A stretch of DNA of 32,000 nucleotides from Pseudomonas aeruginosa (GCF_001457615.1 NZ_LN831024.1:5550001-5582000); one strand, 5' to 3'. Positions 21,247 to 24,680 are shown, counted from the stretch's first letter. Made by a program: numbers and translations. The notes: generated from the sequence alone by a model not told the origin.

Positions 21247-22182
21247 TCAGCCGGCTGTTTCCTGTAGCGGCAGCACCGTCACCCGCACCTCCGGGTCATG
21301 GCTACCGCCACCGAGGATCACCCCGCGCAACGGCGACACATCGGAAAAATCCCGCCCCCAGGCCAGGGTGATGTGCTCCAGGTCGGGCAACAGGTCGTTG
21401 GTCGGGTCGAAATCCACCCAGCCGTTCTCCGGGCAATACAGCGAGACCCAGGCATGCGAGGCGTCGGCACCGATCAGTCGCGCCTGTCCGGGCGGCGGGC
21501 GGGTCAGCAGGTAGCCGCTGACGTAGCGCGCCGCCAGTCCGCGCGCGCGCAGGCAGGCGAGCATCAGGTGGGCGAAGTCCTGGCAGACCCCGCGACGGCG
21601 CTCCAGCACTTCGTCCAGCGGCGTCGCCACCTGGGTGGCCTGCGCATCGAAGGCGAACTCGCGGAAGATCTTCTCCATCAGTGCCGCCGCCGCCACCAGC
21701 AACGGCCGTCCGGGCGGGAAGCAGTCGGCGGCGAACTCGGCGAATCGCCGCTGGATGCGCACATAGGGCGACTCGACGCGATAGCGGCAGGCTTCCAGCT
21801 CGGCGGCGGACAGCGCCCGCCCGGAAAATGCCAGCCCGGCGGCGACGGTTTCCCATGCCGGCGACGCGGTCAGTTGCGCCGGCGCATGGGCGAACACTTC
21901 GACCTGCAGTCGCGCGCTGACCCGCAGCGCCTCGTGGGGACGCTCGAAGGCCAGCCGGCTCAGCGGATTGCCGAATGCGTCGTGGCCATCCTCGCGCCGG
22001 CTCGGCCCCGGCTCGATCAGCAGTGCCCGCTCATGACAGGCCTGCCAGGCGCATTCGCGTGGCCAGAGATGCGCCAGTTGCCGCGACAGCGAGACCGGCA
22101 TCGCATAGCGGTAATGGGTGTCGTGCAGCACCTGGTAGCGGGCGCCCTGGAGCGGAACGGAGCGAAGCGCGGGTGCGGACAT
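21247..22182 (-). CDS. Transglutaminase-like cysteine protease/transamidase (Bact_transglu_N + transglutaminase core)
   Basis: 311 aa. Catalytic-triad contexts RRGVCQDFAH (Cys), DASHAWV (His) and VDFDPTN (Asp). The start codon shares one nucleotide with the upstream stop (TGATG), suggesting translational coupling. Confidence 0.85.
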   Translation of the reverse strand: MSAPALRSVPLQGARYQVLHDTHYRYAMPVSLSRQLAHLWPRECAWQACHERALLIEPGPSRREDGHDAFGNPLSRLAFERPHEALRVSARLQVEVFAHAPAQLTASPAWETVAAGLAFSGRALSAAELEACRYRVESPYVRIQRRFAEFAADCFPPGRPLLVAAAALMEKIFREFAFDAQATQVATPLDEVLERRRGVCQDFAHLMLACLRARGLAARYVSGYLLTRPPPGQARLIGADASHAWVSLYCPENGWVDFDPTNDLLPDLEHITLAWGRDFSDVSPLRGVILGGGSHDPEVRVTVLPLQETAG

Positions 22183-24680
22183 CAGGTGGATACCGTTCTC
22201 TGGCTGACATCGTCGACATGGGCGAAATAGCGCAAGCCTAGCCGATCGGAGACCTGTCCGGCGCAGGCGGCGATGTCGCGCAGCAGTCGCGCCAGCCCGA
22301 CGAGCACCTCGTCGAGTCCTGCCGCGCCGAACAGCGGGCTTTCCAGGGCCGCCAGATCGAAGCTGCGCAGGCGTTCGCCCAGGGTCCTGAGTTCCCGCTC
22401 GCGTGGCGCGCCGAACTCCTCGTGCAGGCGCTCCAGCGAACGCTCCAGGGCCTGCAACTGGAAGCGCAGCGAGTGCGGGTTCTGCTCGTGCAACAGGAGC
22501 AGGTCGAGCACCGGGACCAGCTGCGGCGACGCCAGGTAGCGCGAGCGGTAGGTGATGCCGCTGTTACCCAGCTCCAGCAGCCACTCCAGCGCGCCGGCGT
22601 CCCAGGCGCTACCGCCGTCGAGGAAGGCGGCGATGCTCTCGGCGAAGAAGCGCACGCGCTCGATGCGCCGGCCGATCATCAGGAAACGCCAGCCGTCGTC
22701 GCGGGTCATGTCGTCGAGGGCGAAACCGGACAACGCGGCCAGGGACATCACTAGCCGGTTGAGGAAGTCCAGCGCTTCGCCGAGGTCGGTGCGTGCCGGA
22801 TCGAGCGCCTGCATGTCGCGTTGCAGCTCCAGCAAGGCCAGCCAGTTCTCCCCGGACAAGCGCCCGCGCACCTGCGCCGCCGCCCAGTGCAGGCGCCGCA
22901 GGTTGGCGCACAGGCTCGCCGGCCAGTGCTCGTCGAGCAACGCCCGCAACAGGCACCTTTCCAACGGCTCGCCATCCCCGGGCAGCAGGCCGATGCCGCC
23001 GGCCAGGGCCAGGGCGCTGCGCAACGCCTCTTCGTCGCCATCGGCATCCACGTAGCGCGACAGCACCACCCGCAACAGGCGCGCATGGTCGTCGCAACGC
23101 TCGGCATAGCGGCCGTACCAGAACAGGTTCTCCACCACCCGCGACGGCAGGTAGGGGTCTTCGCGGACCAGGTCGCGCACGCCGAGCCGGCGCGGTCGCA
23201 ACGGCTCGCCGCCGACTGCTCGCTCGGCCAGCACCCAGGTGTCCTTGCTCGCCCCGCCGCGCTGCATCGACACCACTTCGGCGTCCGCCGCCGAGGCTAC
23301 GCGGGTCAGGCCGCCGGGCATCACCCAGTAGCGGCCGTCGCTGGCGGCGACGGCGAATACGCGCATGCCGATGGCCCGCGACTGCAGGCCGACGCCGGCC
23401 TTGCCGTCGCGCCAGACCGGTGCCTGGGACAACTGCGCCAGGCGTTGCGCCACGTAGGCCTGCGGGCGCTCGCGCAAGCGCTCGCCGAGGGATGCCAGGC
23501 CGGCACTGTCGAGGGAGTGGCCGAACAGAGGTTCGCAGCGCTGGCCGGGAAAGGCCGGCTTGATCACCAGGTCGGGCAGTGCCGCGAGTATCGCCTCGAG
23601 GGCTTGCGGCTCGCCGCACCAGCGGGTGTCGAGCGAGGGCAGCGCCAGTTCCTCGCCAAGCAGGCGGCGACAGGCCTGCGGCAGGAAGCCGAGCAGGCCG
23701 GGCGACTCCAGCACTCCGCTGCCCAGTGCGTTGGCCACCAGCACGCGTCCCTGGCGTACCGCCTCGAGCAGGCCGGGAATGCCCAGCGCCGAGTCGGTAC
23801 GTAATTCCAGTGGGTCGCAGAAATCGTCATCGAGGCGCCGCAATACCGCGTGCACCCGTTTCAGGCCGCCGAGGGTCTTGAGATAGAGGGTGGCGTCGCG
23901 CACCGTCAGGTCGTGCCCCTCGACCAGCGGAAAACCGAGCTGGCGCGCCAGGTAGAGATGCTCGAAGTAGGTTTCGTTGAAACGTCCGGGAGTCAGCAGC
24001 ACCACCAGCGGCGTCTCGCCGTCGCCAGCGGCCTGGCTGGCGAGGGTCTCCTGCAGGGTGCGGAAATACCCGGCGAGATGCTGCACGCGCAGGTCGCGAT
24101 AGAGTTCCGGCAAGGCCCGCGAGACGATCTGCCGGTTCTCCAGCGCATAGCCCGCGCCGGACGGAGCCTGGGTGCGGTCGGCAAGGACCTGCCAGCGTCC
24201 GTCGGCATCGCGCGCCAGGTCCACGGCATAGCTGTGCAGGAAAATCCCGCCGGGCGGCCGGATGCCGAGCGCCGGCCAGAGGAAGTTCGGATGGCCGAAG
24301 ACCAGTTCGCTGGGCAGCAGCCCTTCGGCGAGCAGACGCTGGTCGCCGTACAGGTCGGCCAGCAGCGCATTGAGCAGCCGAGCACGCTGCGCCACACCAG
24401 CGGCGATCGGCTGCCACTCGGCGGCGGACAGCAGGTTCGGCAGAAGGTCCAGCGCCCAGGGGCGGTCGGTGCCCTTGGGATCGGCGTAAACGTTGTAGGT
24501 GACGCCGTTCTCCTGGATCTGCCGTTCCACCAGGGCCTGGCGCTGGCGCAATTGCTCAGGGCTGCTGCGCTCCAGTTGGCGGAACAGCCGCTGCCAATGG
24601 GGACGCACGCCGCCCTGGCGATCGAGCAACTCGTGGTAGGCCGTATCGGTGAACGGATAGTGGGCAAGCAGCTCGGGCAT
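22182..24680 (-). CDS. Fusion of a circularly permuted ATP-grasp (type 2) amidoligase domain and an alpha-E domain; function unknown
   Basis: 832 aa. The N-terminal ~480 aa resemble the CP_ATPgrasp_2 (former DUF404/DUF407) family. The C-terminal ~320 aa begin with the alpha-E hallmark LFWYGRYAERCDDHARLL. Domain calls are from memory of these families, not a search. Confidence 0.75.
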   Translation of the reverse strand: MPELLAHYPFTDTAYHELLDRQGGVRPHWQRLFRQLERSSPEQLRQRQALVERQIQENGVTYNVYADPKGTDRPWALDLLPNLLSAAEWQPIAAGVAQRARLLNALLADLYGDQRLLAEGLLPSELVFGHPNFLWPALGIRPPGGIFLHSYAVDLARDADGRWQVLADRTQAPSGAGYALENRQIVSRALPELYRDLRVQHLAGYFRTLQETLASQAAGDGETPLVVLLTPGRFNETYFEHLYLARQLGFPLVEGHDLTVRDATLYLKTLGGLKRVHAVLRRLDDDFCDPLELRTDSALGIPGLLEAVRQGRVLVANALGSGVLESPGLLGFLPQACRRLLGEELALPSLDTRWCGEPQALEAILAALPDLVIKPAFPGQRCEPLFGHSLDSAGLASLGERLRERPQAYVAQRLAQLSQAPVWRDGKAGVGLQSRAIGMRVFAVAASDGRYWVMPGGLTRVASAADAEVVSMQRGGASKDTWVLAERAVGGEPLRPRRLGVRDLVREDPYLPSRVVENLFWYGRYAERCDDHARLLRVVLSRYVDADGDEEALRSALALAGGIGLLPGDGEPLERCLLRALLDEHWPASLCANLRRLHWAAAQVRGRLSGENWLALLELQRDMQALDPARTDLGEALDFLNRLVMSLAALSGFALDDMTRDDGWRFLMIGRRIERVRFFAESIAAFLDGGSAWDAGALEWLLELGNSGITYRSRYLASPQLVPVLDLLLLHEQNPHSLRFQLQALERSLERLHEEFGAPRERELRTLGERLRSFDLAALESPLFGAAGLDEVLVGLARLLRDIAACAGQVSDRLGLRYFAHVDDVSQRTVST

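Follow-up and report, generated by a model that had tools for sequence, protein, structure and literature searches.

A translationally coupled ATP-grasp–Alpha-E and transglutaminase-like gene pair of Pseudomonas aeruginosa: a reduced three-gene unit behind a conserved sigma-54-type promoter

What reaction do two coupled genes of Pseudomonas aeruginosa serve, one for a putative amide ligase and the other for a transglutaminase-like protein, and under what conditions would the cell call on them? The genes lie on the minus strand of a 32,000-nucleotide stretch of chromosome (GCF_001457615.1, NZ_LN831024.1:5550001-5582000), which we call the window and number from its first letter. The upstream gene (22182-24680) begins with ATG and encodes an 832-residue protein in which a circularly permuted ATP-grasp domain is fused to an Alpha-E domain, and the downstream gene (21247-22182) begins with ATG and encodes a small transglutaminase-like protein of 311 residues. 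These open reading frames (ORFs) are exactly those proposed in an earlier note on this DNA, as is the junction between them, which reads ...ccacc TGATG tcc...; at 22180-22184, the TGA of the fused gene and the ATG of the transglutaminase gene have one base in common. GC content at third codon positions (GC3) is 0.87 in the fused gene and 0.84 in the transglutaminase gene versus 0.47 and 0.51 at second positions (GC2), a coding-type pattern in both frames. Compared with four pseudomonads, the ratio of nonsynonymous to synonymous substitution rates (dN/dS) is 0.19-0.32 for the fused gene and 0.24-0.33 for the small transglutaminase gene, and purifying selection acts on both.

The pair itself is not a new sighting. 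The fused protein has 99% identity to P0001, a cluster named 'circularly permuted type 2 ATP-grasp protein [Pseudomonas aeruginosa]' whose 1691 sequences keep at least 90% identity, and both genes are annotated core genes of the P. aeruginosa chromosome that had already been catalogued. By its gene order, the window would correspond to the PA4920-PA4931 region of strain PAO1 and the pair to PA4927/PA4926. A shotgun antisense screen in PAO1 found a PA4926 fragment among its growth-impairing inserts (PMC3922391), a result that current models do not account for and that bears on this locus only if this putative numbering holds; a literature search on PA4927, PA4926 and PA14_650xx returned nothing beyond this screen. 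The domain trio has a history of its own. As relayed in passages of three citing papers, Iyer, Abhiman, Burroughs and Aravind predicted in 2009 that it forms a peptide-ligase or peptide-tagging system in which the transglutaminase-like protein is the peptidase (PMC3495828, PMC5666114, PMC6376114), and these passages bear out the link to that work that the earlier note had drawn. As a member of the system predicted in 2009, found in a reference organism, the pair is therefore already known. The absence of an established substrate or product, also claimed earlier, agrees with the statement that the hypotheses 'have not been experimentally confirmed' (PMC6376114) and with a negative result in a 2026 preprint, in which Mycobacterium tuberculosis Rv2567 and Rv2411c were expressed and made no γ-aminobutyric acid–trehalose (GABA-trehalose), the sole reaction tried, and received no other functional assignment.

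We examined how the genes are arranged in other genomes with a profile built from 25 diverse fused proteins, which yielded 80 loci on contigs from one genome per species, 78 of them scorable. These loci span Pseudomonas, Beta- and Alphaproteobacteria, Planctomycetota, Acidobacteriota, Verrucomicrobiota, Myxococcota and Spirochaetes. The small transglutaminase gene lies directly 3' of the fused gene and on the same strand in 76 of the 78; among 75 orthologous pairs, stop and start codons overlap in 53 (35 as ATGA, 14 as TGATG), and the genes are at most 30 nt apart in 70. At an expectation value (E) of 1e-3 or below, 12,823 cluster representatives are homologous to the fused protein. The top 150 are mostly of fused length (about 800-950 aa), and the fused architecture is a large, common subfamily. 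Given this number of homologues and the recurrence of the pair in distant phyla, its association is not due to chance. The two refuting outcomes named in the earlier note, unsupported domains and genes that fail to co-occur, were not observed.

Contrary to the earlier proposal, the two genes do not form a self-standing system. In 58 of the 78 loci, a gene for a protein of ~1100 aa with Bact_transglu_N, Transglut_core and DUF2126 ('putative amidoligase') domains lies immediately upstream on the same strand, and the usual unit therefore comprises three genes with the fused gene in the middle: the transglutaminase and DUF2126 gene, then the ATP-grasp and Alpha-E gene, then the small transglutaminase gene. 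A Pfam scan of 100 genes flanking fused-type loci found no further family common to more than four and no Anbu or other proteasome family, and all-against-all clustering of neighbours produced only alternate-frame artefacts and no added recurrent partner. Anbu, a proteasome-like protein, is the partner of the unfused paralogous operon and not of the fused subtype. The earlier note had called this locus minimal on the grounds that its genes are fused and Anbu is missing; Anbu is indeed absent, but the reasoning fails because fusion is common and Anbu belongs to the other operon.

What makes the P. aeruginosa locus small is the loss of the DUF2126 gene. The order in Pseudomonas is dnaB, YgiQ, the DUF2126 gene where present, the fused gene, transglutaminase, LOG and azurin. 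The window reads NAD synthase, GDSL lipase, azurin, LOG, LysM/M23 peptidase, MscS, transglutaminase, fused gene, YgiQ-type radical S-adenosylmethionine (SAM) protein, 7TMR-DISM GGDEF protein, alanine racemase and DnaB, with the YgiQ-type gene upstream of the pair and the MscS gene on its other side. A tblastn search of the window with the large protein matched only the small transglutaminase; no remnant was found in the intergenic region or elsewhere, where the promoter segment alone aligns. With a YgiQ-type gene upstream and no large gene detected by tblastn, the window thus holds a reduced variant of the three-gene unit, and the P. aeruginosa locus is a reduced derivative that lost its first gene and retained the promoter. 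The large gene is likewise absent from four further loci (L017, L018, L023 and L082), the species concerned being P. fontis, P. huaxiensis, P. japonica and P. indica. No protein labelled P. aeruginosa occurs among the best 120 DUF2126 matches to a P. citronellolis fragment, which is suggestive but not proof. In P. citronellolis itself (L081, CP015878.1, 2665-5944), the DUF2126 gene is spread over two frames with a shift near 4497, and no gene is called there; a 5.8-billion-protein set contains no intact protein at 90% identity or more (best, 88%), and the split gene is either a pseudogene with a frameshift or an assembly indel.

Some of the loci carry additional features. Conservation of the DUF2126 domain is unusually strong: it is 74-78% identical between Pseudomonas and proteins of Azonexus, Steroidobacteraceae and Xanthomonadales (L081:4502-5944, matches P0388-P0507), a taxonomic span over which the fused partner is merely 45-56% identical. 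Directly upstream (1-4.5 kb) of the three-gene unit, many genomes (L036, L041, L068, L072, L075 and others) have a complete unfused ATP-grasp and Alpha-E set, with or without a transglutaminase, and some have a second small transglutaminase paralogue downstream (L072:11405-12232, L074, L079 and L042:11319-12194). These stacked sets look like serial duplication of a module of ligase and thiol enzyme. In two unrelated genomes, glnE, which encodes glutamine synthetase adenylyltransferase, lies immediately 3' of the small transglutaminase gene on the same strand (L028:11335-14199 and L034:11313-14138), a hint of a link to nitrogen metabolism.

The best functional clue at the locus, which the earlier note did not mention, is its sigma-54/NtrC-type promoter. 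The minus-strand segment TGGCACaagtcTTGC (24809-24823) matches the sigma-54 (-24/-12) consensus exactly, with correct spacing of its -24 GG and -12 GC elements, and 128 nt separate its 3' end from the ATG of the fused gene; 0.10 exact matches would be expected per window by chance. A promoter scan of the upstream region found no sigma-70 consensus. The motif TGGCA[CT]AAGTCTTGC, or a close variant, occurs at the operon start in every Pseudomonas locus examined (20 loci, then L081 and L082), 5' of the DUF2126 gene where that gene is present and 5' of the fused gene where it is absent, and TGGCA[CT]N5TTGC also stands at the operon start of one Paraperlucidibaca locus. Because the motif sits upstream of whichever gene remains first, the deletion kept the promoter. 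About 45 nt further upstream, the imperfect palindrome cGCACCgtcgcaGTGCA (24866-24882, minus strand) resembles an NtrC site and is a candidate enhancer element. The enteric NtrC consensus is TGCACC-N5-GGTGCA, and GCAC/GGTGC half-sites recur upstream in other Pseudomonas loci.

Related operons respond to nitrogen limitation. The orthologous genes I35_5080-5084 of Burkholderia cenocepacia H111 (BCAM1233-1237) depend on NtrC and sigma-54 under nitrogen limitation, and in an ntrC mutant their log2 changes are -8.2 (ATP-grasp), -9.4 (Alpha-E), -9.4 (transglutaminase), -6.0 (large transglutaminase) and -3.1 (fused ATP-grasp and Alpha-E, DUF404/407/403) (PMC5491218). This arrangement equals that of loci such as L068 and L036; it is a full set, with unfused ATP-grasp, Alpha-E and transglutaminase genes and the large gene, whereas P. 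aeruginosa has the fused gene and the small transglutaminase gene only at this locus. The paralogous Anbu operon of P. putida is also induced by nitrogen limitation (PMC3325844, PMC8050072). Judging from its promoter, the P. aeruginosa operon is most likely sigma-54-dependent, activated by NtrC and induced by nitrogen starvation.

We then asked what chemistry the proteins could perform. All four Pfam domains named in the earlier note are supported, and both halves of the fused protein match over the full model: CP_ATPgrasp_2 at residues 81-462 (23295-24440, minus strand; E 1.8e-151) and Alpha-E at residues 511-819 (22224-23150, minus strand; E 1.6e-70). The ATP-grasp half retains the complete set of family-invariant residues expected for an active ligase. 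The Alpha-E domain is all-helical and contains a conserved E674-R675 'ER' pair; across 61 sequences, R524, R528, G670, R671, E674, Y711 and Y715 are invariant and R675 is nearly so. AlphaFold 2 (AF2) gave confident models, with a predicted local distance difference test score (pLDDT) of 81 for the full-length fused protein and of 82 for Alpha-E alone, with a predicted template modelling score (pTM) of 0.83 for the latter. No significant match to the Alpha-E model was found among PDB folds (best E 0.37, template modelling (TM) score <0.3). Neither protein of the pair was matched by any NCBIfam model or by the PADLOC defence-system models.

The ATP-grasp half resembles the structural-genomics protein PDB 3N6X most closely (sequence E 5e-89, 34% identity; fold TM 0.87). 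The fold matches that follow, all at probability 1.00, are eukaryotic glutathione and homoglutathione synthetases (8FBZ, 3KAL), the E-64 ligase Cp1B, Escherichia coli YgiC (7UK8, E 3e-7) and trypanothione synthetase-amidase (2VOB and 2VPS, E 8e-5 to 4e-4, TM 0.36-0.38 on target). Beyond 3N6X, every one of these fold relatives is a circularly permuted ATP-grasp, and wherever the function is known, it is the ligation of small molecules. As a fold match, PsnB, an ATP-grasp that modifies peptides, reached only E 0.035, and RimK- and TTL-type enzymes fell outside the top 50.

The 311-residue protein contains Bact_transglu_N at residues 16-95 (E 8.6e-25) and Transglut_core at residues 163-260 (E 4.7e-21), the latter spanning the intact triad described earlier: Cys200 (21583-21585), His243 (21454-21456) and Asp259 (21406-21408), which together delimit a codon span of 21406-21585 on the minus strand. 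Its motifs GVC200QDF, SH243AW and FD259PT line up with the catalytic motifs of P. aeruginosa TgpA (6G49, E 8.8e-12) and of a Cytophaga transglutaminase-like protein (3ISR, E 7.2e-9), and orthologues conserve the Cys in 76 of 76, the His in 76 of 76 and the Asp in 74 of 76. The likeness to these two proteins consists in the Transglut_core fold and the aligned Cys, His and Asp motifs; TgpA differs in being a reported membrane protein in an unrelated gene context, without the Bact_transglu_N context and without a ligase partner. No signal peptide is visible in the sequence of the 311-residue protein.

Taken together, these features suggest a cytoplasmic ligase/amidase pair under sigma-54/NtrC control that acts on a small amide compound, a model to which we give an even chance. 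The first gene would encode an ATP-dependent carboxylate-amine ligase of the class that includes the eukaryotic glutathione synthetases and the glutathionylspermidine and trypanothione synthetases, and its ATP-grasp domain would convert a carboxylate into an acyl-phosphate before linking it to an amine. Substrate recognition or regulation is probably the part of the Alpha-E domain, in which Arg, Glu and Tyr residues are invariant. Translational coupling of the second gene to the first means that both proteins are made in step. The second protein, a Cys-His-Asp enzyme of the papain fold, would bind an amide substrate as a thioester and then either hydrolyse it or transfer the acyl group to another amine, and it probably acts on the product of the ligase or on a precursor. 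The substrate would most likely be a small amide, peptide-like or of gamma-glutamyl type, with a part in nitrogen scavenging or storage. A bolder version, which we hold only tentatively and consider somewhat less probable, is that the pair, with its DUF2126 partner in other genomes, makes and recycles a novel amide metabolite of nitrogen starvation, such as a small peptide or a gamma-glutamyl- or polyamine-type conjugate with a role like that of glutathionylspermidine, and that Alpha-E is a new substrate-recognition domain.

The closest worked-out analogy for such a pair would be the synthetase/amidase pairing of the glutathionylspermidine and trypanothione synthetase-amidases. In GspS, the synthetase/amidase mechanism is established. 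Those enzymes have a circularly permuted ATP-grasp fold in common with the fused protein, and they follow the same logic, in that a synthetase uses ATP to build an amide and a papain-like Cys-His amidase cleaves it again. They differ in sequence (11-15% identity) and in arrangement: there, an N-terminal CHAP amidase is fused to the synthetase, whereas here a separate transglutaminase-fold protein is present and a CHAP domain is not, and Alpha-E has no counterpart there. The fused protein has no match to Pfam GSP_synth even at E ≤ 1. With no CHAP domain and no family match in sequence, the comparison is an analogy only.

Several points weigh against a nitrogen-controlled small-molecule pathway. 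On regulation, the assignment of cGCACCgtcgcaGTGCA as an NtrC site depends on its resemblance to the enteric consensus; the strict sigma-54 motif at the operon start is not enriched outside the Pseudomonadales (3 of 55 loci versus 8 of 275 control regions); and nitrogen control in P. aeruginosa itself is read from a motif, a search of the main texts of papers having found no expression data for the two genes. On chemistry, the small-molecule reading leans on fold neighbours that have 11-15% sequence identity, the published prediction for the domain trio is a different one, and the Yersinia operon proteins gave no stable complexes (PMC6376114). For no member of the family did our literature search find a substrate, product or phenotype. 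The pathway could, moreover, have been altered or crippled when the DUF2126 partner was lost.

A further difficulty comes from M. tuberculosis. Rv2566-Rv2569c appears to be the same three-gene family, with Rv2567 as the putative fused protein and Rv2569c as the putative small-transglutaminase homologue. Rv2569c has been reported as a secreted protease that cleaves E-cadherin and is blocked by serine-protease and not by thiol-protease inhibitors (PMC11081392), whereas in the P. aeruginosa protein no signal peptide is visible and the thiol triad is conserved. A serine-type profile sits oddly with a Cys-His-Asp domain and fits none of the models considered here.

The alternative that survives best, although we regard it as unlikely, is the protein-tagging system of Iyer and Aravind, in which the ATP-grasp domain would attach amino acids or peptides as tags to protein carboxylates in the manner of RimK or the tubulin tyrosine and glutamate ligases, Alpha-E would recruit the target, and the transglutaminase-like protein would remove the tag, marking proteins for turnover under nitrogen starvation. 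This is what the passages citing the 2009 work report as the prediction for the trio, and the proteasome-like Anbu that sits beside the unfused paralogues (PMC5666114, PMC6376114) would suit it; so would induction by nitrogen limitation, which fits greater protein turnover, and the large, conserved and non-catalytic-looking Alpha-E domain, which could bind macromolecules. However, the nearest structural relatives of known function are all small-molecule ligases, with PsnB and the RimK- and TTL-type enzymes far down the ranking as noted above, and no tagged protein has been reported. When operon proteins of Yersinia and Pseudomonas were co-expressed, they neither modified nor bound Anbu (PMC5666114, PMC6376114), and structural work on Anbu detected neither peptidase activity nor complexes (PMC6376114). 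The usual neighbour of the fused subtype is, moreover, not Anbu but a second amidoligase-like protein, that with DUF2126.

Among the closest known systems are the unfused Anbu operons (P. putida PP_2685-2688 and the Anbu operon of Yersinia bercovieri). They share the three domain families, the order in which these occur and the intact thiol triad, and the P. putida operon also responds to nitrogen limitation. The P. aeruginosa locus differs in that ATP-grasp and Alpha-E form one polypeptide and Anbu is not adjacent, and relatives of the fused subtype have the transglutaminase and DUF2126 protein, not Anbu, as their recurrent extra partner. The P. aeruginosa rlo operon, which combines an ATP-grasp with an inactive transglutaminase, was considered and set aside as a different system related to RimK.

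More doubtful still is a role in nitrogen salvage, in which the transglutaminase-like protein would be the effector, a protease or glutaminase-type deamidase that frees ammonia or amino acids, and the ATP-grasp and Alpha-E protein would serve as its ATP-dependent activator or prepare its substrate. Transglutaminase chemistry with water as the acceptor does free ammonia, an idea that has been raised for this family (PMC6376114), and a nitrogen-starvation promoter, the Burkholderia NtrC data and the glnE genes adjacent in two loci are all compatible with it. The protease activity reported for Rv2569c (PMC11081392) would also fit, but the inhibitor profile of that protein contradicts a thiol mechanism and its kinship to the small transglutaminase is putative. 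The ATP-grasp domain, for its part, has its full set of invariant residues, and a relative turns over ATP by itself: the unfused Yersinia ATP-grasp hydrolyses ATP and releases phosphate (PMC6376114). Tight 1:1 translational coupling and fusion to Alpha-E likewise suggest a metabolic pair rather than a general protease.

That the two genes are an evolutionary remnant, no longer a working pathway after the loss of DUF2126 and under weak or residual selection, is very improbable: the large gene has left no trace in the window, its P. citronellolis counterpart is split over two frames and dN/dS of 0.23-0.33 is not especially low, but the ratio is well under 1, neither ORF is disrupted, the triad and every invariant residue are in place, the fused protein stays at least 90% identical across 1691 P. 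aeruginosa sequences, the sigma-54 promoter was retained directly upstream after the deletion, and the two-gene state is also found in P. fontis, P. huaxiensis, P. japonica and P. indica.

A nitrogen-controlled ligase/amidase pair acting on a small amide remains our preferred model. Few bacterial enzyme systems without known chemistry are as widespread as the sets of ATP-grasp, Alpha-E and transglutaminase genes, which occur in pathogens including P. aeruginosa, Burkholderia and M. tuberculosis; the question dates from 2008-2009, and structural work on Anbu left it unanswered. The three-gene unit, the lineage-specific loss of DUF2126 and the conserved nitrogen-type promoter do not amount to a new system, but they make an old question more testable. 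The promoter ties the fused subtype to nitrogen starvation and so names a condition under which to search for the product. As the natural unit usually includes the DUF2126 amidoligase-like protein, reconstitution should include it too, and P. aeruginosa offers a natural 'minus-DUF2126' background for complementation. With the discovery of the product, bacterial physiology would gain a metabolite or modification of nitrogen stress; if that product were a novel amide metabolite, thousands of bacterial genomes would encode its pathway, and the reduced operon of P. aeruginosa would offer the simplest genetic access to it.

The ends of the operon show few other signals. A GC-rich hairpin followed by UUUU lies 14 nt past the stop codon of the transglutaminase gene (21192-21233, minus strand); this tentative feature of the folded RNA is plausible as an intrinsic terminator between the operon and the MscS gene, although the segment as a whole does not fold significantly (z -1.2) and a scan with a terminator consensus found none on the minus strand. 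The 120-nt leader in the 5' untranslated region has no significant fold (z -0.9). An Rfam search at E ≤ 1 over 19-28 kb returned only a chance match to a viral frameshift element and therefore gave no riboswitch or leader.

Elsewhere in the window, no ORF passed the GC3 coding filter across 1.7 kb at 10950-12680, where long ORFs run at 10050-12629 (plus strand), 11052-12026 (minus strand) and 11552-12622 (minus strand). A second exact sigma-54 consensus, TGGCACgccgcTTGC, lies at 9464-9478 on the minus strand, upstream of the ORF at 8265-9506 (minus strand). It stands at the 5' end of an operon for an amino-acid ATP-binding cassette (ABC) transporter, comprising a Peripla_BP_6 binding protein, two BPD_transp_2 permeases and an ABC ATPase, and probably serves as a further promoter under nitrogen control; translation of the binding-protein gene likely starts downstream of the GTG at 9506. 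At 9001-10000, GC content drops to 0.556 compared with about 0.67 elsewhere, and this dip falls in the divergent intergenic region between the transporter operon and a gene for a LysR-type regulator (10009-10947, plus strand).

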